Of a stretch of DNA of 64,000 nucleotides, positions 24,357 through 40,735 are shown piece by piece. Origin of the DNA: Clostridiales bacterium UBA5448 (lineage in GTDB: Bacteria > Bacillota > Clostridia > Oscillospirales > SIG627). The stretch spans positions 363,540 to 427,539 of the forward strand of contig DIRA01000014.1 in the NCBI GenBank assembly GCA_002427425.1, given 5' to 3'. The first letter of the stretch is position 1. The number at the start of each line of letters is the position of its first letter. Below the pieces are notes generated by a model. That model was not told where the DNA came from. It saw only the letters and a list, made by a program, of their open reading frames with translations, and ran no database searches. A program made the translations under genes and the position numbers.

Positions 24357-24385
24357 TTGACACGGTTGATAAAATATGTTATAAG
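24357..24385 (+). promoter_or_regulatory. Promoter of the aro operon leader
   Basis: TTGACA (24357-24362), 17 nt, TATAAG (24380-24385). Confidence 0.55.
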
Positions 24386-24419
24386 TAGTGTAATCAGTTT
24401 CGAGAAAGGATGATTGACC

Positions 24420-24506
24420 ATGAAATCGATCGTTTCCATGGCAATTGGATACTTCTTTTATTGCTTTTACTTTACCTCTAAAGTAAAAGTGATTCGTGTT
24501 GCATAA
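24420..24506 (+). CDS. Candidate aromatic (Phe/Tyr-rich) leader peptide, 28 aa
   Basis: AAAGGA RBS 9 nt upstream. MKSIVSMAIGYFFYCFYFTSKVKVIRVA has 7 of 8 consecutive codons encoding Tyr or Phe. It lies between a promoter and an intrinsic terminator, directly upstream of aroF-tyrA-...-pheA. Confidence 0.5.
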   Translation: MKSIVSMAIGYFFYCFYFTSKVKVIRVA

Positions 24507-24562
24507 AAGCTTTCGATGAAACTGGGACGGGTGAAATAAACCTAAAACCGGAAGATTGAAGG

Positions 24563-24600
24563 GCCGCACAGAGTCACCTCTGTGTGGCTTTTGTTTTTTT
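24563..24600 (+). terminator. Intrinsic terminator (attenuator) in the aro leader
   Basis: GCCGCACAGAG-TCAC-CTCTGTGTGGC, an 11-bp stem with one G-U pair, followed by TTTTGTTTTTTT. It ends 14 nt before the aroF ATG. Confidence 0.8.
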
Positions 24601-24614
24601 AAGGAGTGTACAGT

Positions 24615-25616
24615 ATGATTGCTATTTTAAAGCAGGGAACAAGTGCAGAACAAAGAGATCATTTGTGTGAATGGTTTCGGAACATGGGACTGGATGTACA
24701 CATTTCCGAGGGGAAATATCACAGCATCATTGGATTGATCGGGGATACAAGCAAAGTGGATATCGGGCTTTTGGAGAGTTTGTCCATCATCCAATCGGTG
24801 AAACGGATCAGCGAACCCTTCAAAAACGCCAATCGTAAATTCCATACGGAAGATTCTGTCATGGATATTCTGGGAAACAAAATCGGCGGAGGACATTTTC
24901 AGATCATCGCCGGGCCCTGTTCCGTGGAATCCCGAGAACAGATTGTATCCGTTGCCAAAAGTGTGAAAGAAGCAGGGGCAACCATATTGCGGGGTGGCGC
25001 CTTCAAACCCCGCACTTCCCCATATGATTTTCAGGGGCTTCACGGAGAAGGCATTTCCTTGCTGTTGGATGCCAAGCGGGAAACAGGGATGCCTATCATC
25101 ACTGAGATTATGAATGCAAACGACTTGCCGTTGTTTGAAGATGTGGATATCATTCAGGTGGGCGCCCGGAATATGCAAAATTTTGACTTGCTCAAAGAAT
25201 TGGGGAAAACCCATAAGGTGATTCTTTTAAAACGAGGGCTGGCAAACACTTTAAAAGAACTTCTCATGAGCGCGGAATACATCATGGCAGGAGGAAATGA
25301 AACGGTCATACTCTGCGAACGGGGCATCCGTACCTTTGAAACCTATACCAGAAACACCCTGGATCTTTCCGCTGTCCCCCTGCTCCATGAATTGACCCAT
25401 CTTCCCGTGATCATCGACCCCAGCCATGCCACCGGATTGTCTCGCCTGGTGGAACCCATGGCATTGGCGGCTGCGGCGGCTGGGGCGGACGGTCTTATGA
25501 TCGAAGTGCACAACGATCCGGAACATGCCTTGTGTGACGGTGCCCAATCTCTAACCCCTGCCCAATTTGCAGCCGTGGTACAGAAAGTGAAGAAAATCCG
25601 GGAGGCTCTGTCATGA
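24615..25616 (+). CDS. aroF: 3-deoxy-7-phosphoheptulonate (DAHP) synthase, class I-beta, with an N-terminal regulatory domain
   Basis: AAGGAG RBS, ATG at 24615. About 75 aa of ferredoxin-like N-terminal domain, then IAGPCSVES, GAFKPRTSPYDFQG and IIDPSHA motifs. Confidence 0.9.
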   Translation: MIAILKQGTSAEQRDHLCEWFRNMGLDVHISEGKYHSIIGLIGDTSKVDIGLLESLSIIQSVKRISEPFKNANRKFHTEDSVMDILGNKIGGGHFQIIAGPCSVESREQIVSVAKSVKEAGATILRGGAFKPRTSPYDFQGLHGEGISLLLDAKRETGMPIITEIMNANDLPLFEDVDIIQVGARNMQNFDLLKELGKTHKVILLKRGLANTLKELLMSAEYIMAGGNETVILCERGIRTFETYTRNTLDLSAVPLLHELTHLPVIIDPSHATGLSRLVEPMALAAAAAGADGLMIEVHNDPEHALCDGAQSLTPAQFAAVVQKVKKIREALS

Positions 25617-26452
25617 TGACCATTGGCATTGCAGGTCTTGGTCTGATGGGTGGATCGCTGGCAAAAGCGTATCAAAGAAATCCGAAAATAACGGTATACG
25701 GCATGGATGCCAATGCTTCCATCACCGAATTTGCTAAACTCTCCGGTGTCATTGACAACGAATTGAACCGGGATACCATCGGGGAATGTGAGTGTGTGTT
25801 CATTGCCTTATATCCCAGGGCCGCCCGGGACTATCTGGAATCCATGGCACCCCATATCCCACCAAAAACGCTGGTCATGGATTGCTGCGGCACCAAACGG
25901 GAAATGTGCCAAATAGGCTTTCGTCTTGCCCGGGAATATGGATTCGAATTCGTGGGCGGACATCCCATGGCAGGAAACCATCATGCGGGCTTTCGGAGTA
26001 GCCGTGCCGACTTGTTTGAAAAGGCGTGTATGGTGGTTGTCCCCAAAACCTTTGATGATATTGTATTGTATGATCGCATCAAAAAGGTTTTGGAACCGGC
26101 GGGTTTCGGGAAAGTATCGGTGACCACAGCCGAAAAGCACGACGAATTGATTGCCTTTACCTCCCAGATGGCCCATGTGGTATCCAATGCGTTTATCAAA
26201 AGCCCTACCGCCGGCGAACATAAAGGGTTTTCTGCCGGAAGCTACAAGGATTTGACCCGTGTGGCATGGTTGAATCCGGACATGTGGACAGCCTTGTTTT
26301 TAGAAAACAAAGATAATTTGTTAAAGGAACTGGATATCTTTCTTCGGGAACTGCAAAAATATCGGGATGCCATTGTCGACGGGGATGAAAAAGAGCTTCA
26401 CCGTTTGCTGGAAGAAGGAAGCAGAAGAAAGGAAGAAGTGGACGGAGCATGA
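25613..26452 (+). CDS. tyrA: Prephenate dehydrogenase
   Basis: IGIAGLGLMGGSLAKA Rossmann motif, GGHPMAG motif. 279 aa, with overlapping start/stop codons. Confidence 0.88.
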   Translation: MMTIGIAGLGLMGGSLAKAYQRNPKITVYGMDANASITEFAKLSGVIDNELNRDTIGECECVFIALYPRAARDYLESMAPHIPPKTLVMDCCGTKREMCQIGFRLAREYGFEFVGGHPMAGNHHAGFRSSRADLFEKACMVVVPKTFDDIVLYDRIKKVLEPAGFGKVSVTTAEKHDELIAFTSQMAHVVSNAFIKSPTAGEHKGFSAGSYKDLTRVAWLNPDMWTALFLENKDNLLKELDIFLRELQKYRDAIVDGDEKELHRLLEEGSRRKEEVDGA

Positions 26453-27501
26453 AAAAGGTACACATCCGGACCCCAAGCAAACAGTATGATGTCTATATAG
26501 GAAGCAGTCTTTTGGAAAAAGCAGGAAGACTTTCTGCCAACATCATCGGCGTGGGAAAAGTGGCGATTGTGACCGACGACATCGTGGATCGGTTGTATGC
26601 TTCCCGCTTGCAGCAGGTATTGGAAAAAACAGGATATACTGTGGTAAAATTTGTGTTTTGTCACGGGGAGGCCTCAAAAAATGCCGCTACATATATACAG
26701 CTGTTACATTTTTTAGCTAAAAATCATTTGGTACGTACCGATGCCGTATTCGCTCTGGGCGGCGGTGTGGTGGGGGATATGGCAGGATTTGCGGCGGCGA
26801 CCTATTTGCGGGGTGTTCGCTTTGTGCAGCTACCCACCACCCTGCTGGCTGCGGTGGATTCCTCCGTGGGGGGGAAAACTGCCATTGATCTGGAGGGGGG
26901 CAAAAATCTGGCAGGGGCTTTTTATCAGCCGGATTTGGTACTGTGCGATTGTTCTTTGTTGGAAACGCTGGAACCCCGGCACATTTCCGACGGTCTTGCG
27001 GAAGTGATCAAATATGCCGTCGTTCGCGACGAGGGGCTTTTTACCAGGTTAAAAACCGTTGCAAAAAAAGAGTGGGCGCCCATCATTGCCCGCTGTGTGG
27101 AAATCAAAGGCGAGATTGTGGGAAAGGATGCAATGGATACGGGGGTACGGGAGCTGTTGAATTTCGGTCATACTTTCGGACATGCCATAGAAGCATCCGG
27201 CAGGTATACCCTTTCCCATGGCAGTGCGGTGGGCATTGGCATGGCCATCATCACCCGAGCCTGTGTCAAACAAGGACGTTGCGACCTGTCTTGTCAGCGG
27301 GAATTGGAAGATATGTTGACGCGCCATGGGCTTTCCACGCAAACCGATTTGTCTGAAGAGGTAATATTTCAAGCAGTTTTATCGGATAAAAAAAGAAAAC
27401 AAGACGGCATCACCCTCATCCTGCCCCGAAAAATCGGGCTGTGTGAAGGCGTGAAAGTATCTTTGGAAGAAGCAAAAGAATATTTGCACCTTGGACTATA
27501 A
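26449..27501 (+). CDS. aroB: 3-dehydroquinate synthase
   Basis: ALGGGVVGDMAGFAAATYLRGVRFVQLPTTLLA and LNFGHTFGHAIE motifs. Confidence 0.92.
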   Translation: MKKVHIRTPSKQYDVYIGSSLLEKAGRLSANIIGVGKVAIVTDDIVDRLYASRLQQVLEKTGYTVVKFVFCHGEASKNAATYIQLLHFLAKNHLVRTDAVFALGGGVVGDMAGFAAATYLRGVRFVQLPTTLLAAVDSSVGGKTAIDLEGGKNLAGAFYQPDLVLCDCSLLETLEPRHISDGLAEVIKYAVVRDEGLFTRLKTVAKKEWAPIIARCVEIKGEIVGKDAMDTGVRELLNFGHTFGHAIEASGRYTLSHGSAVGIGMAIITRACVKQGRCDLSCQRELEDMLTRHGLSTQTDLSEEVIFQAVLSDKKRKQDGITLILPRKIGLCEGVKVSLEEAKEYLHLGL

Positions 27502-27513
27502 AAGGGGAACGGT

Positions 27514-28785
27514 ATGCAGGTAACAATATATCCCTCCCGGTTGGAGGGTACCATGGAGGCCATTGCCTCCAAATCCCATATGCACAGATTGCTGGTGAGT
27601 GCTTCTTTGGCACGGGGAGAAACATGGATTCAGTGTAAAACAACCTCCGATGATATTGAAGCCACCCGGGATTGTCTGCAACAAATGGGGGCGGATATCC
27701 GCCGTACCGCGGATGGCTTTCATGTCATTCCACGTCAAGGAAAGGATAGCGTACCTGTCCGGGTCAACTGCAGGGAAAGCGGTTCTACCTACCGTTTTTT
27801 GTTACCTGTTGCCGGTGTTTTGGGGATGCAAACGGAGTTTATGTTGGCAGGCAGATTGCCCCAACGCCCTATGGAAGCCTTGTGGACAGAACTGGAGCAA
27901 AAAGGGATGGTTGTTTGTGGAAAAGGTACGCCTTTGGTTTCGGTCAGGGGACAACTGAGGGGCGGTGTGTATACCATGCCGGGGAATATATCATCCCAAT
28001 TCATCAGCGGACTGGTGATGGCACTGCCGCTGTTGGAGGAAGACAGCGAGATAATCATCACCGGTGATATCCAATCCAAAGGATATATTGCCGTTACGCT
28101 GGAAACGGTGAAGGGGTTTGGGATACAAGCCCATTGGGAAGGCGATCGGATGTACATTCCCGGCAAACAGACCTATATTTCTCCCGGTACGTTTAGGGCG
28201 GAAGGAGATTGGTCCAACGGTGCATTCATATTGTGTGGGGGTGCCCTGGGCGGGCGGGTTACATGCCGGGGATTGCAGCTTTCTTCCCCCCAGGGGGACA
28301 AAGCTATCTGTGAAATTTTGGGGCGGTTCGGGGCGGAAGTGACCCAAGAAACGGATGGTGTGACAGCAACGAAAAACGCCATGCAAGGCATTGACTTGGA
28401 CGGAGGTGATATTCCCGATTTGATTCCTGCCATCGCCGTGGTGGCAGCGGCGGCAGAAGGAAGAACCATTCTCCGTAACATCGGAAGGCTGAAATGGAAA
28501 GAAAGTGATCGGCTGCTTGCCATCGGTAAAACTTTGCAAACAGTAGGCGGACAGGTGGAGATTTTGGAGGATTCTTTGGTGATAGAGGGAAATGGCACCC
28601 TTCACGGCGGTACCATCCATTCCTTTGGGGATCATCGCATTGTGATGATGGGGGCGATCGCTTCCTTATTGTGTGAAAATTCTGTCATCATTCGGGATGC
28701 CCAGGCGGTACAAAAATCGTATCCCCGTTTTTTTGAAGATTTTCAAACTTTAGGAGCCAATATCCAAAAGGAGGAAGAAACATGA
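27514..28785 (+). CDS. aroA: 3-phosphoshikimate 1-carboxyvinyltransferase (EPSP synthase)
   Basis: ASKSHMHR, LRGGVYTMPGNISSQFISGL, DHRIVMM motifs. 423 aa. Confidence 0.92.
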   Translation: MQVTIYPSRLEGTMEAIASKSHMHRLLVSASLARGETWIQCKTTSDDIEATRDCLQQMGADIRRTADGFHVIPRQGKDSVPVRVNCRESGSTYRFLLPVAGVLGMQTEFMLAGRLPQRPMEALWTELEQKGMVVCGKGTPLVSVRGQLRGGVYTMPGNISSQFISGLVMALPLLEEDSEIIITGDIQSKGYIAVTLETVKGFGIQAHWEGDRMYIPGKQTYISPGTFRAEGDWSNGAFILCGGALGGRVTCRGLQLSSPQGDKAICEILGRFGAEVTQETDGVTATKNAMQGIDLDGGDIPDLIPAIAVVAAAAEGRTILRNIGRLKWKESDRLLAIGKTLQTVGGQVEILEDSLVIEGNGTLHGGTIHSFGDHRIVMMGAIASLLCENSVIIRDAQAVQKSYPRFFEDFQTLGANIQKEEET

Positions 28786-29873
28786 GTTCATGTTACGGAA
28801 AAAACATCCAAATATCCATATTCGGTCAATCCCATTCCCCTGCCATCGGTGTGGTCATAGACGGACTGCCGGCAGGATTTGCTCCGGATATGGAGAAGTT
28901 ATCCGCTTTTTTAGAAAGGCGAGCACCCGGAAGAAATGCTTTGTCCACCCCGCGTCAGGAAACAGACAAGGTGGAAATCGTGTCGGGCATGGCAGACGGC
29001 CGATTTTGCGGCGCGCCGTTCGCTGCTTTGATTTATAATCACAATGTTCATTCCTCCGATTATCATAACATAAAAGAAACCCCCAGACCCGGTCATGCAG
29101 ATTTTACCGCGTTTGTCAAATATCACGGAGCGCAGGATGTGGCGGGCGGCGGTCATTTTTCCGGTCGGCTCACGGCACCAATGTGTGTGGCAGGGGGTAT
29201 TTGTCTGCAGCTTCTGGAACAGGAAGGGATATATATCGGCGCTCACATTCAAAGCATCCATCAGGTGCCGGATATCCCCTTTGATCCGGTGAAGGTCTCA
29301 AAAGAGACGTTTTATTCCCTACGCACCCGCCTTTTGCCTGTCATGGACAGAAAAGCGGGAGAACACATGGAAAATCTCATCGAAAAGGTGCAACAAGAGG
29401 GAGATTCCGTAGGCGGCGTCATCGAATGTGCTGCCATCGGCTTGCCCGTGGGGTTGGGAGAACCGATTTTTGAAGGGATGGAAAACCGCCTTTCATCGGT
29501 CATATTCGGTATTCCCGGGGTGAAAGGCATTGAATTTGGCAATGGATTTGCTTGTTGTGATCGAATGGGTAGCGAAAACAACGATCCTTTTACCATGGAA
29601 GAAGGCCGCGTGAAAACCCGGACCAATCGCCACGGCGGGATATTGGGGGGGATCACATCGGGTATGCCATTGATTTTCCGTGTGGCGGTGAAACCCACTT
29701 CCTCCATATTCAAATCCCAAGAAACCGTATCATTGTCCCGATTGGAAAGTACCACGCTCCAAATACAGGGCAGGCATGATCCTTGCATCGTGCCGCGGGC
29801 GGTTCCCTGTATAGAAGCGGCGACAGCCATTGCCATCTATGATGCCTGGCTGGATTACAAAAAATATCAATAA
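28782..29873 (+). CDS. aroC: Chorismate synthase
   Basis: FGQSHSPAIGVVIDGLPAG, RPGHADF, GRHDPC motifs. Confidence 0.92.
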   Translation: MSSCYGKNIQISIFGQSHSPAIGVVIDGLPAGFAPDMEKLSAFLERRAPGRNALSTPRQETDKVEIVSGMADGRFCGAPFAALIYNHNVHSSDYHNIKETPRPGHADFTAFVKYHGAQDVAGGGHFSGRLTAPMCVAGGICLQLLEQEGIYIGAHIQSIHQVPDIPFDPVKVSKETFYSLRTRLLPVMDRKAGEHMENLIEKVQQEGDSVGGVIECAAIGLPVGLGEPIFEGMENRLSSVIFGIPGVKGIEFGNGFACCDRMGSENNDPFTMEEGRVKTRTNRHGGILGGITSGMPLIFRVAVKPTSSIFKSQETVSLSRLESTTLQIQGRHDPCIVPRAVPCIEAATAIAIYDAWLDYKKYQ

Positions 29874-29884
29874 GGAGAACAACG

Positions 29885-31027
29885 ATGGATATGCAGACAT
29901 ATCGGAGTCAAATGGATGAAGTGGACCAACAATTGGTGTCATTGTTTGTAAAACGGATGGAATTATCACAAACCATAGCCCAATATAAAGCCGACCATAA
30001 ACTACCCCTCTATGACCCCCAAAGAGAACGGGAAAAACTTTCACACATTGCTTCACAAGTGGGGCCTTCCATGGCCACGTATACCGATGCTTTGTATTCG
30101 TTTCTCTTTGAAATGAGTCGTTCCTGCCAGCGCAAGCAAATGGGACAAAACACTGCCCTCACAGGGGAGATTCTCAAAGCGTTGGAACAAACCGAGCCTC
30201 TTTTTCCCCCCCGTGCTTTGGTGGCGTGTCAAGGGGTGGAAGGGGCGTTTTCTCAACAAGCATGCGAAAAAATTTTTTCCTCCCCCCATATTTTGTATTT
30301 CAATTCCTTTGAAGGGGTATTTTCCGCCATTGACAAGGGATTGTGCCGCTATGGTATTTTGCCGTTGGAAAACAGCAGTGCCGGCTCGGTGAATAAAATT
30401 TATGATTTGATGATGAAATACAATTTTAGTATCGTCCGCAGCACCCGTTTGAAAGTGGATCATTGTCTGCTTGTAAATCCCGGGGTGAAGTTAAAAGATA
30501 TTAAGGAAATTTTGTCCCATGATCAGGCTTTTGCCCAGTGCCAAGATTTTCTCAAGACCATGGAAAACGTGAAAATCTCTTCCTGTGATAATACGGCTGC
30601 TGCTGCCAAATATCTATACGAATCGGGGCGTGCCGATGCCGCCGCATTGTCCTCCCGCAACTGTGCCGAACTGTATGGCTTAGACTGCTTACAAGAATCG
30701 GTACAGGACCAGGGAAGCAATTATACCCGGTTTATCTGCATTTCCAAGAAATTGGAAATCTTTCCAGGGGCAGATATAACCAGCATTATGATGGTATTAC
30801 CCCATAAACCCGGTTCCGTATACAAAGTGTTGGCACGGTTTTATGCATTGGGAATTAATTTAATCAAATTGGAAAGTAGGCCCTTGCCCAACAGCGATTT
30901 TGAATTTATGTTTTATTTTGATTTGGATGTTTCGGTATATTCCGATGCCTTCAAGCAAATTTTCGGGGATCTGGAAGAGCTGTGTGTCTCCATGAAATAC
31001 TTAGGAAGCTATACTGAAGCTGTATAA
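29885..31027 (+). CDS. pheA: Bifunctional chorismate mutase / prephenate dehydratase
   Basis: N-terminal CM_2 helix bundle (IDEVDQQLVSLFVKRMELS), then a PDT domain (YGILPLENSSAGSV) and a C-terminal ACT domain (ESRP). Confidence 0.9.
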   Translation: MDMQTYRSQMDEVDQQLVSLFVKRMELSQTIAQYKADHKLPLYDPQREREKLSHIASQVGPSMATYTDALYSFLFEMSRSCQRKQMGQNTALTGEILKALEQTEPLFPPRALVACQGVEGAFSQQACEKIFSSPHILYFNSFEGVFSAIDKGLCRYGILPLENSSAGSVNKIYDLMMKYNFSIVRSTRLKVDHCLLVNPGVKLKDIKEILSHDQAFAQCQDFLKTMENVKISSCDNTAAAAKYLYESGRADAAALSSRNCAELYGLDCLQESVQDQGSNYTRFICISKKLEIFPGADITSIMMVLPHKPGSVYKVLARFYALGINLIKLESRPLPNSDFEFMFYFDLDVSVYSDAFKQIFGDLEELCVSMKYLGSYTEAV

Positions 31028-31160: not shown

Positions 31161-32528
31161 TTATATCTTTGGTATACCCGCAAACCCTGCTGCCAATTCT
31201 TCATCCGTGGGAATATAGTCGCTCATTGTTCCATCGTGGAATTTTTCATACGCCATCATATCGAAGTAACCGGTACCGGTCAGCCCAAAGAGAATGGTTT
31301 TTTCTTCTCCTGTTTCTTTGCATTTCAAGGCTTCGTCAATGGCTGCTTTGATGGCGTGGCTGCTTTCGGGTGCGGGCAGGATGCCTTCCACCCGGGCAAA
31401 CGTTTCCGCCGCTTGGAAAACGGAGGTTTGCTCCACGGCAATCGCTTCCATCAATCCGTCGTGATATAGCTGAGACAAGATGCTGCTCATACCGTGATAC
31501 CGCAGACCGCCTGCATGGTTGGGAGCCGGTATAAAGCCACTGCCCAAGGTGTACATTTTAGAAAGTGGGCAAACCATGCCCGTATCGCAGAAGTCGTAGG
31601 CAAAAACGCCCCGGGTAAAGGAGGGACAGGAGGCGGGTTCCACGGCAATGATGCGGTAATCCGCTTCTCCTCGGAGTTTTTCTCCCATGAACGGTGCGAT
31701 CAAGCCACCCAGATTGGATCCGCCCCCAGCACATCCGATGATGATGTCGGGTTTCACGCCGTATTTATCCAGAGCGATTTTGGATTCCAGTCCGATGATG
31801 GACTGATGCAACAGCACCTGATTCAATACGCTGCCCAGCACATACCGATATCCTTCTGAGGTGACGGCGACTTCCACCGCTTCGGAAATGGCACATCCCA
31901 AGCTCCCTGTGGTACCGGGATGGTCCGCCAATATCTTTCTGCCCACGGCGGTTTCCATGGAGGGAGAAGGAGTGACCGAAGCGCCGTAGGTGCGCATCAC
32001 TTCCCGGCGGAAGGGTTTTTGTTCATACGATACTTTCACCATAAATACTTTACAGTCCAGTCCGAAATAAGAACATGCCATGGAAAGGGCGGTGCCCCAC
32101 TGGCCGGCACCCGTTTCGGTGGTAAGGCCTTTGAGACCCTGCTGATTGGCATAATAGGCTTGGGCAATGGCGGTATTTAATTTATGGCTTCCGCTGGTGT
32201 TGTTTCCTTCGAACTTATAATAAATGTTCGCAGGGGTTTGGAGTTTTTCTTCCAGGTAGTAGGCTCTCACCAGGGGAGCGGGACGATACATCGTATAGAA
32301 ATTCTGGATATCCGGGGGAATTTCAAAATAGGCGGTGTTGTCATCCAACTCTTGGCGAACAAGCTCTTTGCAAAACACGGCTTCCAGTTCTTCCGCTCTC
32401 ATGGGCTCCTTTGTCCCCGGATTGAGGAGGGGAGCCGGCTTGTTTTTCATATCTGCCCTGAGATTGTACCAGGCCTTGGGTATCTCGTCTTCTCTGAGGT
32501 AGATTTTGTAGGGGATGGGGTTTTTCAT
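31161..32528 (-). CDS. trpB: TrpB-like PLP-dependent enzyme (TrpB2-type tryptophan synthase beta chain)
   Basis: 455 aa (long TrpB2 form). NNTSGSHKLN lysine motif and GCAGGGSNLGG. Preceded by a Trp-specific T-box. No trpA is present in the window. Confidence 0.85.
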   Translation of the reverse strand: MKNPIPYKIYLREDEIPKAWYNLRADMKNKPAPLLNPGTKEPMRAEELEAVFCKELVRQELDDNTAYFEIPPDIQNFYTMYRPAPLVRAYYLEEKLQTPANIYYKFEGNNTSGSHKLNTAIAQAYYANQQGLKGLTTETGAGQWGTALSMACSYFGLDCKVFMVKVSYEQKPFRREVMRTYGASVTPSPSMETAVGRKILADHPGTTGSLGCAISEAVEVAVTSEGYRYVLGSVLNQVLLHQSIIGLESKIALDKYGVKPDIIIGCAGGGSNLGGLIAPFMGEKLRGEADYRIIAVEPASCPSFTRGVFAYDFCDTGMVCPLSKMYTLGSGFIPAPNHAGGLRYHGMSSILSQLYHDGLMEAIAVEQTSVFQAAETFARVEGILPAPESSHAIKAAIDEALKCKETGEEKTILFGLTGTGYFDMMAYEKFHDGTMSDYIPTDEELAAGFAGIPKI

Positions 32529-32566: not shown

Positions 32567-32838
32567 ATAAAAAATCTCTTGCCTCTGCAAATTCTTATGC
32601 AGGGACAAGAGAATACTCTCCTGCGGTGCCACCCGGCTTGACACAGATACTGTGCCCACTTTAACGTACCTCAATACGCTGACCCTTGATAACGGACAGT
32701 CACCCCCGTCGCACCTACTCGAAATTCTTTCGGATTGCCCTCCCAAGTCCATTCATCCCCATCTTTGGCACCGCCATTTCACCGCCGGCGGCTCTCTGTA
32801 TCCTCTGATACGCAGGATTACTTCTCTTGTTCATCGGT
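32567..32838 (-). promoter_or_regulatory. T-box riboswitch leader with a Trp (UGG) specifier
   Basis: The minus strand carries, in the canonical order:
- a GA motif and AGAGA-AGUA near the 5' end
- CAGAGAG...GGUGAAA
- the specifier context GAA-UGG-A (32754-32748)
- an AGUAGG box
- the T-box core CCGGGUGGCACCGCAGG (32636-32620)
- a 14-bp terminator stem (32611-32576) followed by AUUUUUUAU. Confidence 0.85.
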
Positions 32839-32845
32839 TTGTTGC

Positions 32846-32939: not shown

Positions 32940-32985
32940 AAAACACATAAATTATTTTTCAGAAAAACACATAAATTATTTTTCA
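32940..32985 (+). repeat. Tandem direct repeat (2 x about 22 nt) just upstream of the leu promoter; includes a CodY-box-like sequence
   Basis: AAAACACATAAATTATTTTTCA occurs twice (32940-32961 and 32964-32985). ATTTTTCAGAAAAAC at 32954-32968 matches 12 of 15 positions of the AATTTTCWGAAAATT CodY consensus. Confidence 0.4.
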
Positions 32986-32993
32986 AGAAACTA

Positions 32994-33022
32994 TTGACAA
33001 GATGATAAATCTCTGCTATACT
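32994..33022 (+). promoter_or_regulatory. Promoter of the leu/ilv leader
   Basis: TTGACA (32994-32999), 17 nt, TATACT (33017-33022). Confidence 0.65.
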
Positions 33023-33057
33023 CACAACCAAACCAAGCGAAAGGAAACGAGAAGATT

Positions 33058-33159
33058 ATGATGAATCTGTTTGTACTTGTCAATATCGTAATTGCTGTTA
33101 TTGTCCTTCTCCTTATTGACAATGACAGAAATTGCTGTTGCCTACAAACAGAAGCTTAA
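33058..33159 (+). CDS. Candidate branched-chain amino acid leader peptide 1 (33 aa)
   Basis: MMNLFVLVNIVIAVIVLLLIDNDRNCCCLQTEA has 14 of the 17 residues 4-20 as Leu, Ile or Val. It lies between a promoter and a terminator upstream of leuA. The RBS is weak or distant (AAAGGAAA 13 nt upstream). Confidence 0.5.
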   Translation: MMNLFVLVNIVIAVIVLLLIDNDRNCCCLQTEA

Positions 33160-33187
33160 AGGGAATCATCGTATCATCGATTCATGA

Positions 33188-33226
33188 AAAGCCTTGTAGT
33201 GTAATAGCTACAGGGCTTTCTTTGTT
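33188..33226 (+). terminator. Intrinsic terminator after leader peptide 1
   Basis: AAAGCCTTGTAG-TGTAATAG-CTACAGGGCTTT, with one G-U pair. The distal TT of the 3' arm begins a TTCTTTGTT tract. Confidence 0.65.
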
Positions 33227-33254
33227 ATATATTTGTTCTCAGGAGGAAACTGGA

Positions 33255-33356
33255 ATGAACCATGCAGAAATCAAACGAATTCTTGTATATGGCATTCTTA
33301 GCATTGTCGTACTTATACGACAATGCAGATACGGTTTTGCCACAGGGGAACAATAG
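33255..33356 (+). CDS. Candidate branched-chain amino acid leader peptide 2 (33 aa)
   Basis: Strong AGGAGG RBS 8 nt upstream. MNHAEIKRILVYGILSIVVLIRQCRYGFATGEQ has 11 of the 16 residues 6-21 as Ile, Leu or Val. The 74-aa track ORF 33132-33356 is an unsupported upstream extension of this frame. Confidence 0.55.
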   Translation: MNHAEIKRILVYGILSIVVLIRQCRYGFATGEQ

Positions 33357-33383
33357 ACTCAGCATCAAAAGATGGGTCAATCT

Positions 33384-33408
33384 TCGGGGCAAACACCCCG
33401 ATTTTTTT
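33384..33408 (+). terminator. Intrinsic terminator after leader peptide 2
   Basis: TCGGGG-CAAACA-CCCCGA followed by TTTTTTT, 46 nt before the leuA ATG. Confidence 0.75.
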
Positions 33409-33454
33409 ATTTTTAAATATGAAAGGCTTACCACAAGCCAGAAGGAGGAAACGG

Positions 33455-34984
33455 ATGAAGAGCCGAATTAAAATCTTTGACACAACACTGCGGGACGGTG
33501 AGCAGGCCCCCGGATGCAGCATGAATCTGCATGAAAAAATTGAGGTGGCACGCAGACTCGAACTCCTTCGCGTGGATGTGATCGAAGCCGGCTTTGCCAT
33601 TTCTTCCCCGGGAGACTTTGAATCGGTAACGACGGTAGCCGAAACCATTCAAAATTGTACCGTCGCTTCCTTGGCACGGTGTGCCTACAAAGATATTGAT
33701 GCCGCCTACAACGCACTGCGCAAAGCGGTAGATCCCCGCATCCATGTCTTTCTCGCAACCTCTCCCGTACACATGGAGTATAAATTGAAAATGTCCCCCC
33801 AACAAGTGTTGGAAACCATTGAAACGATGGTCAAGTACGCCAAAAGCCGCTGTCATAACATTGAGTTTTCCGCTGAAGATGCCATGCGAAGCAATCCGGC
33901 GTTCTTGGCACAGGCAGTCAGATGTGCCATTGCTGCCGGTGCCACTGTGATCAACATTCCCGACACCGTGGGATACGCCACCCCCCTGGAAATGCAAAAC
34001 ACGCTGCAATATCTGCGAAAAGAAGTGCCGGAATGTGAAAGCATCGATTTATCCGTCCACTGCCACAATGATTTGGGTATGGCAACCGCCAATACCTTGG
34101 CAGGTATTATAGGAGGTGCCACCCAGGTGGAATGTACCGTCAACGGTTTGGGCGAACGGGCAGGCAATGCACCTTTGGAAGAAGTGGTCATGGCCATCCG
34201 CACCCGTCCTGATCTGTATGGATTGGAAACCAACGTGGATACGTCCCAAATTTATATGGCAAGTAAGACGGTTTATGGCATCATCGGGAGAACCGCTCCC
34301 ATCAACAAGCCGGTCGTGGGCGGAAACGCCTTTGCCCATGAAGCAGGCATTCACCAACACGGGGTATTGGCCAATCGAAGCACCTATGAGATTATGACTC
34401 CCGAATCCATCGGTATTACCACCCGTCAAATGGTTTTGGGCAAACATTCCGGCAGACATGCCTTTGAAGACAGACTGCGGGAATTGGGCTTTAGTTTGAG
34501 CCGAGATGATCTGGAAAGCTGCTTTACCCGCTTCAAAAATTTGTGCGATAAGAAAAAAGATGTCACCGATAAAGATATTCTGGCGCTGGTTCGCAACCTG
34601 GAAGTGACATCGGCAGCGGTTTATGTATTGAAACGTTTCTCGGTACACGCCGGAGGAACCGAATCGGCAACCGCCATTGTAACGCTGGAAAAGGACGGTG
34701 TGGTGACTGAGGAAGTGGCACTGGGCAACGGTCCCGTGGACGCGGCCTATCGGGCGGTGGACAAGATTATTTTACCGCCGGAATATAGTATTGAAAATTA
34801 TGTCATAAACTCTGTATCAGAGGGAAAAGACAGCTTGGGTGAAGTCGTCACCACCTTGAAATACGGCGATCGAATATTTACCGGCCGAGGACTTTCCACC
34901 GATATTATTGAAGCCAGTATTTTGGCATATATACACACACAAAACAAACTGATGGCATATTATCAAACAGAAAAGGGGGCATGA
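33455..34984 (+). CDS. leuA: 2-isopropylmalate synthase
   Basis: Start at [17 protein letters not shown], behind [24 protein letters not shown] motif and the C-terminal LeuA allosteric domain. Confidence 0.92.
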
Positions 34985-37871: not shown

Positions 37872-38846
37872 ATGGTGAAATGGAATGAAATGAGTCTGCA
37901 AGAAACTCTGGAATATATGAGTAAACTTGACAGCGGCGCTCCCAACAGCCAAAATTATTTTGCCGATGTCGCCATGCATGATTCCCACCGCCCCCTGCAA
38001 ATGTTGGCGGTAACCAAACTGACGGATCAAGCCCTTTTGGCTAAGGTGGCATCCTACCATACCGACTATGAAATATATAGGATCGCACTCCAAAAAATCA
38101 GCGACCCTGCTTTGATTTCAGAGGTAGCCCGAAACGCTTGGGATATATATGCATGTCTTTTGGCTGTACGAAAGATGGACAATCCGGAAGAACTTCTGCA
38201 AATCGCACGGTATCATACCAAAGGGGAAGTCCGCAGGGAGGCGGTGAAAAAAATAAACCAGCCCAAACACTTGATGCAAATCATGCAAACCAACTCCGAT
38301 GACACCGTACGGGCTGCGGCGGTGAAAAAATTGACAGACCCGGATCTTCTGTTTCGGATTGCACGGGAGGAAACTGTGCCGGAGGTGTACCGGGAAGCGT
38401 TGGAAATTCTGGAAGAACAAACAAAAATTGCGGTTGTTTTTCAAGAAAATATATTACAACCCAAAGGAAAAATCGCGTTGCGCCGCCTGAAAGACCTGGC
38501 ACAAATTTACGGCATTGAGGAGGAAATCCTCCCTGTTCTGGCGAAGGGGATGGAGAAATCCGAACTGGTGATGATGGTCATGGATGTAATGGAAAGTAGC
38601 GGTCTGGCATGGTGGGCTTATTGCTGGGAGGTTACCGTGGAAGCCCTGTATGAAATATCCAAACGCCGTCAAAGCTGGGAAGAAACCAAATCGGTGGAAA
38701 GTGCCATCCAAACCATCTATCGTTATCGGGAAGATTTGAGACCAGCCATTGAATCCTATGCCTGGTTTGCACACCATCGATTGGATGACAGGGATGAATA
38801 TGTCATTCTTCCGATGCGATTTGATTACCCGGAAAAGAAAAAATAA
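37872..38846 (+). CDS. Hypothetical helical-repeat (HEAT-like) protein
   Basis: 324 aa with about five 30-aa repeats of the form A(V)xKLTDxxLLxxIAxxxxxxxVRxxA (for example AVTKLTDQALLAKVAS, ALQKISDPALISEVAR, AVKKLTDPDLLFRIAR). Confidence 0.55.
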   Translation: MVKWNEMSLQETLEYMSKLDSGAPNSQNYFADVAMHDSHRPLQMLAVTKLTDQALLAKVASYHTDYEIYRIALQKISDPALISEVARNAWDIYACLLAVRKMDNPEELLQIARYHTKGEVRREAVKKINQPKHLMQIMQTNSDDTVRAAAVKKLTDPDLLFRIAREETVPEVYREALEILEEQTKIAVVFQENILQPKGKIALRRLKDLAQIYGIEEEILPVLAKGMEKSELVMMVMDVMESSGLAWWAYCWEVTVEALYEISKRRQSWEETKSVESAIQTIYRYREDLRPAIESYAWFAHHRLDDRDEYVILPMRFDYPEKKK

Positions 38847-38870
38847 ATCCAAACGAAACCAAAGGAGTTT

Positions 38871-38969
38871 ATGATGTCTTATCTGTTTGTCAGCCTTATC
38901 GTCTTCCTTATTGGCATTATCGTCATAATTGATAATGCTTTTCGGCGCTGCGCTGGCAAAGAGGTGTGA
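38871..38969 (+). CDS. Candidate branched-chain amino acid leader peptide 3 (32 aa)
   Basis: AAAGGAG RBS. MMSYLFVSLIVFLIGIIVIIDNAFRRCAGKEV has 12 of the 16 residues 5-20 as Ile, Leu or Val. It shares MM..LFV...IV......IDN...C with leader 1. It is followed by a terminator and then ilvB. Confidence 0.5.
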   Translation: MMSYLFVSLIVFLIGIIVIIDNAFRRCAGKEV

Positions 38970-38993
38970 ATAGAGTGAAAATAAAACTCTTGA

Positions 38994-39027
38994 AAAGACC
39001 TTACAGCGAACGCTGTAAGGTTTTTTC
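38994..39027 (+). terminator. Intrinsic terminator after leader peptide 3
   Basis: ACCTTACAGC-GAAC-GCTGTAAGGT followed by TTTTTCTT, preceded by AAAAG. Confidence 0.8.
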
Positions 39028-39055
39028 TTATATATGAAAGGAGAATGAACGCACA

Positions 39056-40735
39056 ATGAACTGCAGCGGAGCACAAATATTGGTGGAAGAATTGATCAAA
39101 CACGGCGTCAAAACCGTCTTTGGTTATCCGGGCGGTGCCGTACTCGATATTTACGATGAGTTGTATCGGAATGCCCACCGGATCGAGCATATCATTTCCG
39201 CCCATGAGCAAGGGGCTGCTCATGCCGCCGACGGATATGCCAGAGTGACAGGAAAACCGGGGGTGGTGATTGCCACCAGCGGTCCCGGCGCCACCAACCT
39301 GGTCACCGGCATCGCCAATGCGTACCTGGATTCCATACCCATGGTGGCGATCACCGGCAACGTGGCCGTTTCCCTGTTGGGCAGGGACAGTTTTCAAGAA
39401 GTAGACATCATCGGCATCACCCAACCCATCGTCAAACATAGCTATATCGTGAGAAAAGTGGAGGAGCTGGAATTTGTATTGTCGGAAGCATTCTGGCTTG
39501 CTTCCACCGGACGAAAAGGGCCCGTTCTGGTGGATATCCCCAAAAGCGTCCAGAAAGAACTGTGTGAGTATCCCGGTTCTCGCCGTCATAGCTCCCCGCC
39601 TTCCTCCCAAGTGTCCGATTTGGATCTGACCGAAGCATTGAAATTCATTGCAAACAGCAAGCGGCCCTATATTTATTGCGGTGGGGGCGTATTGGCGGCG
39701 GAGGCAGAAGAAGAAATAGTATCCCTTTCTCAACGCCTGTCCGCTCCTGTCGGATTGAGTATGATGGGTTTGACCGCGATCCCGGCCTCCTATCCTTTGA
39801 ACCTGGGTATGAGCGGCATGCATGGAAAATATGCGGCTTCCATGGCTCAGTCCAAGGCAGATTTGATCCTTGCTGTAGGAGTACGGTTCAGCGACAGAGC
39901 CACGGGGAACGTGGCAGAGTATACCAAAAACTGTACCGTCATACACATCGATATTGATGAAGCGGAAATCGGCAAGAACATCACTTCCGTGGTGGAATTG
40001 TGCGGAGATGCCAAGGCTATTCTGCAAAAACTGTTGGAAAAGCTTCCCCTTGCCCGGCAGGAGGAATGGCTGGAAACCGTGGCGGCATACCGGAAAAAAG
40101 ATGAATGCAGGGAAAAAGAACTCTATTTTACCCCCGGCAATATCTTACGGTATATTGCCAACGCTGTTCCCCCTGAAACGGTGGTCGCCACCGACGTAGG
40201 GCAGCATCAAATGTGGACCATGCAGCATTACCGTTTTGAACGAACCAGAACTCTACTCACTTCCGGCGGTTTGGGGGCGATGGGATTTGGTTTGGGTGCA
40301 TCCATCGGGGGATGTGTGGGAAACGAAAAAAACCCCACCCTGCTCTTTACGGGGGACGGCAGTTTTGGCATGAATTTAAACGAACTCGCCACGGCGGTGT
40401 CTCAACAACTGCCCATTTTGATCGTGCTGTTTAACAACGGGGTACTGGGTATGGTGCGGCAATGGCAGTACATGTTCTATGAAGAAAGATATTCTTCCAC
40501 CACCTTAGGCAGAAAAACCGATTTTGTTCAGCTTGCCAAAGCTTTTGGAGCCGATGGAAAAACCATTCATTCCATGGACGAATTAAAACAGGCGTTTTCC
40601 CAGGGATTCCCCTCTGACGGACCCTTTTTGCTGGACTGTCGGATCGATGGGAATGAAAGAGTGTATCCCATGATTCCTCCCGGAGGATCGGTGAAAGATA
40701 TGATGATGCAGCAAGGAGGTGAAGCACATGAATGA
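39056..40735 (+). CDS. ilvB: Acetolactate synthase large subunit (biosynthetic type)
   Basis: TPP-enzyme motifs (GYPGGAVLDIYD; GLGAMGFGLGASIG; GDGSFGMN). 559 aa. Confidence 0.92.
   Translation: MNCSGAQILVEELIKHGVKTVFGYPGGAVLDIYDELYRNAHRIEHIISAHEQGAAHAADGYARVTGKPGVVIATSGPGATNLVTGIANAYLDSIPMVAITGNVAVSLLGRDSFQEVDIIGITQPIVKHSYIVRKVEELEFVLSEAFWLASTGRKGPVLVDIPKSVQKELCEYPGSRRHSSPPSSQVSDLDLTEALKFIANSKRPYIYCGGGVLAAEAEEEIVSLSQRLSAPVGLSMMGLTAIPASYPLNLGMSGMHGKYAASMAQSKADLILAVGVRFSDRATGNVAEYTKNCTVIHIDIDEAEIGKNITSVVELCGDAKAILQKLLEKLPLARQEEWLETVAAYRKKDECREKELYFTPGNILRYIANAVPPETVVATDVGQHQMWTMQHYRFERTRTLLTSGGLGAMGFGLGASIGGCVGNEKNPTLLFTGDGSFGMNLNELATAVSQQLPILIVLFNNGVLGMVRQWQYMFYEERYSSTTLGRKTDFVQLAKAFGADGKTIHSMDELKQAFSQGFPSDGPFLLDCRIDGNERVYPMIPPGGSVKDMMMQQGGEAHE

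Follow-up and report, generated by a model that had tools for sequence, protein, structure and literature searches.

Two Leader-Peptide Attenuators in Series Are Predicted Upstream of leuA in an Uncultured Clostridia Bacterium

In Clostridiales bacterium UBA5448, leuA is preceded by a leader of about 425–436 nucleotides (nt) that contains two open reading frames (ORFs) of 33 codons each and two intrinsic terminators. We analyzed this leader within a 64-kb stretch of contig DIRA01000014.1 (the whole stretch is called the window below, and coordinates count from its first letter). The conservation of the leader in relatives and the folding of its transcript suggest that both units are, very probably, ribosome-mediated transcription attenuators arranged in series before leuA. 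Two attenuators in series had been proposed in an earlier note on this DNA, and the promoter, both ORFs, both terminators, and the RBS (ribosome-binding site) and ATG of leuA were all found at the positions given there. Each unit has its own ORF, protector, antiterminator and terminator, and both units are conserved in relatives. The main residual doubt is whether the diverged second module of the window senses amino acids or merely damps transcription.

Two modules in the leuA leader

The leader and all its features lie on the plus strand. Its sigma-70-type promoter (32994–33022) consists of the −35 element TTGACA (32994–32999), a 17-nt spacer and the TG-extended −10 element TATACT (33017–33022). 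It matches 11 of 12 consensus positions, and transcription would start near 33029. A promoter scan of the leader found no promoter between the two modules. The fold of the 436-nt leader has a z-score of −6.7 when compared to dinucleotide shuffles.

The leuA loci were gathered from reference genomes, metagenomes and contigs encoding close LeuA homologues. We compared 15 relatives, whose LeuA is 70–77% identical to that of the window; the genome and metagenome scans yielded no relative above 77%. Each of the 15 has a homologue of module 1 upstream of leuA, preceded by a TTGAC promoter whose distance matches. In the relatives, the TTGAC −35 element lies at about −460 from leuA in leaders with two modules and at about −280 to −330 in leaders with a single module. 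Module 2 is present in half of the 16 leaders (the window, L081, L001, L082, L164, L165, L170 and L171). Since both sets of ORF, antiterminator and terminator lie on one transcript and this layout is conserved in 8 of 16 leaders, the leader can be classed as a tandem cis-regulator. The leader peptides of the relatives are 28–44 residues long, and the equal length of 33 residues, which the earlier note had pointed out, is coincidental. In L163 (905–1200), about 330 nt separate terminator 1 from leuA, and no second module or terminator is recognizable there. The module-1 sequences of the window and the 15 relatives were aligned (alignment A2, 16 sequences), and a covariance model, R1, was built from module 1.

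In module 1 (33058–33226), ORF1 (33058–33159) encodes MMNLFVLVNIVIAVIVLLLIDNDRNCCCLQTEA, and its regulatory Ile/Val/Leu codons are codons 10–20. The Shine–Dalgarno (SD) sequence AAAGGA (33040–33045) stands 12 nt before the ATG, and GAAAGGA precedes the start in most relatives of the alignment. The frame of ORF1 is kept in all 16 sequences, all indels being multiples of three (3, 9, 12 or 18 nt). Ile, Leu and Val (ILV) make up 15 of the 33 residues (six Leu, four Ile and five Val), which is significant against a background of 22% in the window's own Leu/Ilv enzymes (Leu 8.0%, Ile 6.6%, Val 7.4%; binomial p = 0.002). In the pooled module-1 peptides, the total reaches 37% (Leu 18.3%, Ile 9.6%, Val 9.4%). 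Enrichment in cognate codons therefore holds for the module-1 family as a whole, and it is weak for ORF2 of the window taken alone. The description of both peptides as dominated by Leu, Ile and Val in the earlier note is accurate for ORF1 and only weakly so for ORF2.

ORF1 is folded into a protector hairpin, P1 (33066–33152), which represents the "1:2" pairing. Using RNAalifold with the 16 sequences, we found that the outer helix of P1 (33066–33075 with 33143–33152) joins the first codons of ORF1 to the last; the inner helix (33090–33105 with 33118–33133) and the terminator were also recovered. The 5′ arm of the inner helix is the conserved GTTATTG (Val-Ile). The apical loop (33106–33117) reads CTT CTC CTT ATT, that is, Leu-Leu-Leu-Ile, and it starts with a Leu codon in 15 of the 16 sequences, usually with two or three of them. 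Compensatory changes were detected in 19 of 30 pairs of module 1, both protector helices included. Intrinsic terminator 1 (33188–33226) has a 13-base-pair (bp) stem (33188–33200 with 33207–33219) followed by the U-rich tail CTTTGTT, and it covaries across the 16 sequences (11 pairs, most with compensatory changes). A small hairpin, P2 (GAATC/GATTC, 33163–33184), is located just past the stop codon of ORF1. Its counterpart at or near the stop codon folds in every relative, with a differing sequence (GATCGR...YCGATC type).

Region 2 of module 1 (GTTGCCTACAA, 33137–33147), which covers the Cys-Leu-Gln codons near the end of ORF1, is at the same time the 5′ strand of antiterminator 1. The first candidate for this pairing, a 6-bp CTACAA/TTGTAG helix extended outward, was discarded: its two outer pairs are formed in 0 of 16 sequences. 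The antiterminator was found by folding the transcript of each relative ended before the 3′ arm of the terminator. In this structure, GTTGC-CTGCAA (GTTGCCTGCAA) pairs with TTGCAG-c-GTAAC and reaches via a 1-nt bulge into the terminator loop. In the window, 33137–33147 forms 11 pairs with 33194–33205, which is the 5′ arm and loop of terminator 1, and P2 lies within the antiterminator loop. The pairs of antiterminator 1 are formed in 94.3% of the alignment cells, compared to 24–53% when the partner is slid. The near-invariance of GTTGCC and of the terminator loop GTAAC in the 16 sequences is accounted for by this pairing. The module-1 peptides also have a common C-terminal C-L-Q/R-T-D motif, and its apparent conservation arises because the Cys-Leu-Gln codons take part in the protector helix as well as in the antiterminator. 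The entropy by codon position in module 1 is nearly flat (0.96, 0.91 and 1.06). This indicates that the constraint acts on the RNA and not on the peptide.

Module 2 occupies 33241–33408. Its ORF2 (33255–33356) encodes MNHAEIKRILVYGILSIVVLIRQCRYGFATGEQ, and an ORF with an SD is found at the same place in seven relatives. The SD AGGAGG of ORF2 (33241–33246) pairs with 33332–33341 in the untranslated fold. The inner hairpin GCATTGTCGTA-CTTA-TACGACAATGC (33301–33326) is a perfect 11-bp helix with the Leu codon CTT (33312–33314) in its loop, and the Val (GTA) and Ile (ATA) codons on either side share nucleotides with the ends of the stem. This hairpin covaries, as GCATTGTCGTA/TACGACAATGC of the window is replaced by GCGCTGCCGC/GCGGCAGCGC in L170. 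The 5′ strand of antiterminator 2 (33336–33346) is set in the conserved motif GGTTTTGCC (33333–33341). A small hairpin, P2′ (GACTCA/TGGGTC, 33356–33378), follows the ORF2 stop codon. Intrinsic terminator 2, TCGGGG-CAAACA-CCCCGA with seven T (33384–33408), has its stem-loop at 33384–33401, of which 33384–33393 is the 3′ strand of antiterminator 2. All eight leaders with module 2 have in common the SD and ATG, the covarying inner hairpin, Leu codons in its loop, GGTTTTGCC, and a GC-rich terminator with GGGCAAA. The RNAalifold consensus for module 2 is the antiterminator itself, that is, GGTTTTGCC paired with GGCAAA-CC.

The frame of the module-2 ORF is conserved in all eight sequences, and the regulatory codons before GGTTTTGCC are in the same frame. 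The motif itself is read in frame 0 in the window and in frame 2 in all seven relatives because of a 2-nt difference in the hairpin loop. Thus, the RNA motif is conserved and the C-terminal peptide is not. The earlier note had suggested checking whether the ORFs upstream of leuA are conserved in related genomes; ORF1 is conserved in all 16 leaders, with the nearly flat codon-position entropy described above, and the module-2 ORF in eight of them. R1 matches module 2 of L001 with 59.2 bits and that of L082 with 55.3 bits, and that of the window with only 23.3 bits. These matches show that module 2 originated as a tandem copy of module 1 and has since diverged from it; it is not a different sensor, as the multi-input reading in the earlier note would require. 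The division of labor between Leu and Ile/Val suggested there is not seen in the window either, where both peptides are mixed (ORF2 contains three Leu, five Ile and three Val). In L164, L170 and L171, the module-2 peptides are nearly Leu-only (seven to nine Leu, with one to three Ile plus Val), and differential tuning of the modules is possible in these leaders.

Alternative folds and the proposed mechanism

In this 5′ leader, which belongs to a biosynthetic operon, each module has a short ORF with an SD and an intrinsic terminator ahead of the structural gene. We determined their structure in three states, in which the ribosome is absent, has its A site on the Ile/Val/Leu codons, or stands at the stop codon; the transcripts were ended before the 3′ arm of the terminator. 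Without the ribosome, the protector of both modules holds region 2 and leaves the 5′ arm of the terminator free, which leads to the terminator. In module 2, region 2 is then paired with the SD region of ORF2. Once the Ile/Val/Leu codons occupy the A site, the antiterminator is formed (−17.8 kcal/mol in module 1 and −15.8 kcal/mol in module 2), and the small hairpin past the stop codon is enclosed in it. A ribosome that stands at the stop codon masks region 2 together with the 5′ arm of the small hairpin in both modules; no antiterminator is formed, and the terminator follows. In these computations, the antiterminator excludes the terminator, and its 5′ strand is also held by the protector and lies within the ribosome footprint of the stop codon. 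The prediction of alternative structures for each module, recommended in the earlier note, thus revealed a protector, an antiterminator and a terminator in both. From these folds we infer how the two modules would respond to amino-acid supply and with what kinetics.

According to the proposed mechanism, the short ORF rich in Leu, Ile and Val codons would lie inside a long protector hairpin, and region 2, the 3′ arm of this protector, could pair alternatively with the 5′ arm and loop of the downstream terminator to form the antiterminator. In a leader without a ribosome, region 2 would be kept by the protector, the terminator would form and transcription would stop. When charged tRNAs are plentiful, the ribosome would reach the stop codon and mask region 2, and the terminator would form again. 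If the ribosome instead stalls where the hairpin top carries the run of Ile/Val/Leu codons, it would open the protector and set region 2 free. The free region 2 may then capture the emerging 5′ arm of the terminator, so that RNA polymerase would read through. Module 2 originated by tandem duplication of module 1. Transcription reaches leuA only past both terminators, so that overall read-through multiplies two such decisions. A series of two attenuators should give a lower basal level and a sharper response.

Several observations weigh against two working attenuators. When the leader was folded at equilibrium with the ribosome masked, the probability of the terminator was 0.96 in module 1 and 0.5–0.95 in module 2 at every simulated position. 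The terminators thus win at equilibrium, as is usual for attenuators, and therefore any switch must be kinetic. The equilibrium test did not discriminate, so it was replaced by the folding of transcripts ended before the 3′ arm of the terminator. No other antiterminators of the set form weaker duplexes than those of the window (−10.9 and −11.6 kcal/mol); in the relatives, the duplex of antiterminator 2 has −13 to −19 kcal/mol. Antiterminator 1 is marked mostly by conservation and not by covariation: both sides change in two pairs, and the observed score was also attained in 42 of 500 shuffled controls. ORF1 has a weak SD. ORF2 taken alone is not significantly rich in ILV (11 of 33 residues, p = 0.09 against the 22% background). 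Finally, the stop codon of module 2 in L164 and L171 is located 32 nt past the antiterminator strand, too far for masking by a terminating ribosome. In module 2 of the window, the stop codon is 13 nt past GGTTTTGCC.

Neighboring leaders, known RNA families and rival explanations

Two further leaders of the window match R1. The match before ilvB (53.3 bits, E = 6 × 10−8) is a paralogue of leuA module 1. This third ILV leader-peptide attenuator (predicted at 38863–39045) has the SD AAGGAG (38863–38868), an ORF encoding MMSYLFVSLIVFLIGIIVIIDNAFRRCAGKEV (38871–38969) and a 16-bp terminator (38992–39027) before the ilvB ATG at 39056; its hairpin is built as in module 1. The match before the aro operon is weaker (33.1 bits, E = 2.7 × 10−4). 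There, a putative Phe/Tyr-rich leader-peptide attenuator (24357–24602) starts with a TTGACA promoter-like sequence at about 24357, and its ORF (24420–24506) encodes MKSIVSMAIGYFFYCFYFTSKVKVIRVA, which includes the Phe/Tyr-rich GYFFYCFYF. The terminator at about 24552–24585 is followed by a T-rich tail. The aro operon (24606–31027) encodes 3-deoxy-D-arabino-heptulosonate 7-phosphate (DAHP) synthase, tyrA, aroB, aroA, aroC and pheA. The codon bias of the leaders thus tracks the pathway: Phe/Tyr codons mark the aro leader, and Ile/Leu/Val codons mark those of leu and ilv. Membrane peptides or ORFs that arose by chance would hardly show such a match. Both the copy before ilvB and the Phe/Tyr version before aro had been missed in the earlier note.

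On the plus strand of the leuA leader, no Rfam family matched at the gathering score or at E ≤ 10, the T-box RF00230 included, and no family matched at the gathering score in the leaders of 20 relatives. The only Rfam match in the window is a T-box (99.8 bits) on the minus strand at 32598–32843. It has its own consensus promoter (32874–32846) and serves a gene for a TrpB-like pyridoxal phosphate (PLP) enzyme (31161–32528, minus strand), which is divergent from the leuA leader. A T-box is also located directly upstream of leuA (about 80–330 nt) in five Clostridia that are more distant: L034 (Christensenellales), L038 (Anaerovoracaceae), L040 (Agathobaculum), L043 (Oscillibacter) and L045. Thus, two types of sensor alternate at leuA within the class, and the remark in the earlier note that most Clostridia use a T-box instead is confirmed for a part of the class. 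A further single-leader subtype was seen about 120–250 nt upstream of leuA in metagenome-assembled genomes of Oscillospiraceae (L005–L009, L022 and L085), for example, MRLFVIGSLILFVIIVRLCRNGNSAKSHAVNAG. It has a conserved GTTATTATTGT...AATAGCG hairpin and a conserved GAAAAGTCATGC complementary to the apex of the terminator (TGACTTTTC).

Downstream of the leader, the gene order is leuA-leuC-leuD-leuB, an unassigned ORF, and ilvB-ilvN-ilvC-ilvD-ilvA. The unassigned ORF (324 residues, 37872–38846), between leuB and the ilvB leader, breaks the otherwise contiguous leu-ilv block and has no NCBIfam match. Behind terminator 2, a hairpin GGCTT-ACCAC-AAGCC (33425–33439) stands 3 nt upstream of the leuA SD AGGAGG (33443–33448), and the leuA ATG is at 33455. 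Counterparts with a differing sequence are found 1–4 nt before the SD in 12 of 16 relatives. This hairpin could be a 5′ stabilizer of the mRNA or an insulator of the RBS. Just upstream of the −35 element of leuA, between the divergent T-box promoter and the leuA promoter, there is an exact 18-nt direct repeat, AAACACATAAATTATTTT, in two copies with a period of 24 nt (32941–32982). It includes TTTTTCAGAAAAA, which resembles a CodY box in 12 of 15 positions. We considered a CodY operator and rejected it: the best site (32954–32968) has three mismatches, and the window contains four such matches when 6.2 are expected, which is not above chance.

Which explanations other than two attenuators in series are conceivable? 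It is possible, though improbable, that one module still regulates and the other is a decaying duplicate with a leaky or constitutive terminator, so that the leader would be a single attenuator with a fixed transcriptional damper. Half of the close relatives have module 1 alone, and in the window, module 2 gives the low R1 score, the weakest antiterminator 2 of the set and a peptide without significant ILV enrichment, all of which would suit such decay. However, terminator 2 is canonical and strong, with a GC-rich stem and seven T, and the expression of leuA therefore needs a way past it. Module 2 of the window also retains a strong SD, ILV codons that are in frame at the hairpin loop, the pairing of GGTTTTGCC with GGCAAA and, close behind the motif, its stop codon, and module 2 has been kept in several lineages whose LeuA is 73–77% identical to that of the window. 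It is quite unlikely that the terminators are real and the ORFs incidental, with read-through set by a trans-acting factor, be it a protein that binds RNA, a tRNA or a small molecule. Such a factor would fit the shortness of the antiterminators, which are beaten by the terminators at equilibrium, and the exact direct repeat upstream of the promoter hints at added control by a protein. Against such a factor speak the lack of any match to an Rfam family, T-box or riboswitch in the leader of the window or of the 20 relatives, the ORF1 that stays open, in frame and behind an SD in all 16 sequences with its indels in multiples of three, and the codon bias that fits the pathway at leu, ilv and aro.

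It is very hard to believe that the ORFs encode functional small hydrophobic membrane peptides, such as type I toxins or regulatory micropeptides, from short terminated transcripts of their own. Both peptides do have a hydrophobic stretch followed by polar residues, the module-1 peptides have their common C-terminal motif, and a consensus-like promoter on the minus strand (33083–33055) could yield an antisense RNA. However, the 9 nt of the C-L-Q codons coincide exactly with those paired in the protector and in the antiterminator, the codon-position entropy is nearly flat, unlike that of a protein under purifying selection, and in its C-terminal half ORF2 of the window follows a frame different from that of the seven relatives. 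The sequence of the minus-strand promoter differs at that position in the aligned relatives, and we regard this promoter as a by-product of TTGTCAA in the hairpin arm. In addition, every copy is located directly upstream of an operon for amino-acid biosynthesis. A type I toxin–antitoxin peptide was therefore rejected on account of the flat entropy, the frame switch in module 2 and the differing antisense promoter sequence in relatives.

Comparison with known systems and significance

Ribosome-mediated attenuation is a textbook mechanism in Proteobacteria and is thinly documented in Firmicutes. In the enterobacterial ilvGMEDA (ilvL) and leu (leuL) operons, a short ORF with cognate codons, the 1:2/2:3/3:4 pairing logic and an intrinsic terminator are combined, and the stop codon lies near region 2. 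The leader described here resembles ilvL and leuL in its ORF with codons for branched-chain amino acids (BCAA), in the logic of protector, antiterminator and terminator, in the position of the terminator before the first structural gene, and in the stop codon near region 2. In contrast to ilvL and leuL, with which it has no similarity in sequence or Rfam model, this leader places the entire ORF within a single long hairpin that carries the regulatory codons at the apex, its antiterminator reaches into the loop of the terminator, and two units stand in series.

Tandem T-boxes and riboswitches, such as thrZ of B. subtilis and the tandem thiamine pyrophosphate (TPP) riboswitch of B. anthracis, also consist of complete units with their own terminators in series, and such arrangements are regarded as making the response steeper and more digital. 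The leuA leader is like them in having complete units with their own terminators placed serially on one leader. They sense a tRNA or a metabolite directly by RNA, whereas here the translating ribosome would be the sensor. In the mgtCBR leader of Salmonella, the signals differ between the two ORFs (ATP and proline-charged tRNA), which have no sequence relationship. In contrast, the units described here are paralogous, with an overlapping codon bias and a canonical intrinsic terminator each. The leader of mgtCBR contains tandem attenuators with two short leader ORFs, mgtM and mgtP, each with its own alternative stem-loops (Lee and Groisman 2012, PMC3641672). To that extent it is like the leuA leader, in which each of two short ORFs would govern its own stem-loops.

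For Firmicutes, the closest parallel is the attenuator peptide of the S. aureus ilv-leu operon, where an Ile/Leu-rich leader peptide is followed by a terminator (Kaiser et al. 2018, PMC5794164). It belongs, like the leader studied here, to a BCAA operon of Firmicutes with a leader peptide and a terminator, and it provides a precedent outside Proteobacteria (PMC5794164). In S. aureus, the antiterminator was proposed to sequester the poly-U tail, and co-regulation by CodY was demonstrated (PMC5794164), whereas in the window matches to a CodY box do not exceed chance. The same paper cites leaders predicted for Lactococcus lactis and Streptococcus, and a study of Listeria monocytogenes belongs to this group as well (PMC5864092). 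The cases in Bacilli are single attenuators before ilvD or ilvB, whereas the leader of the window comes from Clostridia and is duplicated. "Regular" leader peptides were found to be rare in Firmicutes (Naville and Gautheret 2010, PMC2965389). In the open-access literature, we found no description of tandem paralogous amino-acid leader attenuators or of the leuA-leader family in Clostridia, and no report of ribosome-mediated attenuation in Clostridia. The class of mechanism is known, and what is new is the family, the clade and the conserved tandem layout.

A wider picture, which as a whole we consider tentative and rather doubtful, would join these observations. In it, an uncatalogued attenuator family of an uncultured Clostridia lineage would stand in place of the T-box of distant relatives and would have spread by duplication to leu and ilv; the aro leader, which has the same build, may be related. 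The tandem before leuA would then be a two-stage AND gate, with module 1 as a general Ile/Val/Leu sensor and module 2 as a Leu-biased filter of the kind suggested by L164, L170 and L171. If this is true, the leu operon would be induced specifically and ultrasensitively by leucine shortage.

Gene callers label such leader ORFs as hypothetical proteins in uncultured Clostridia. The alignments obtained here could support a new RNA family and a better annotation of uncultured Clostridia from the gut and from digesters. If both units before leuA are attenuators, the same mechanism would be used four times in one 64-kb window (twice at leu, and at ilv and aro), beside a T-box. The tandem paralogous layout would be the ribosome-based counterpart of tandem riboswitches and T-boxes, and it may serve as a natural system for asking whether serial attenuators sharpen or gate the response.

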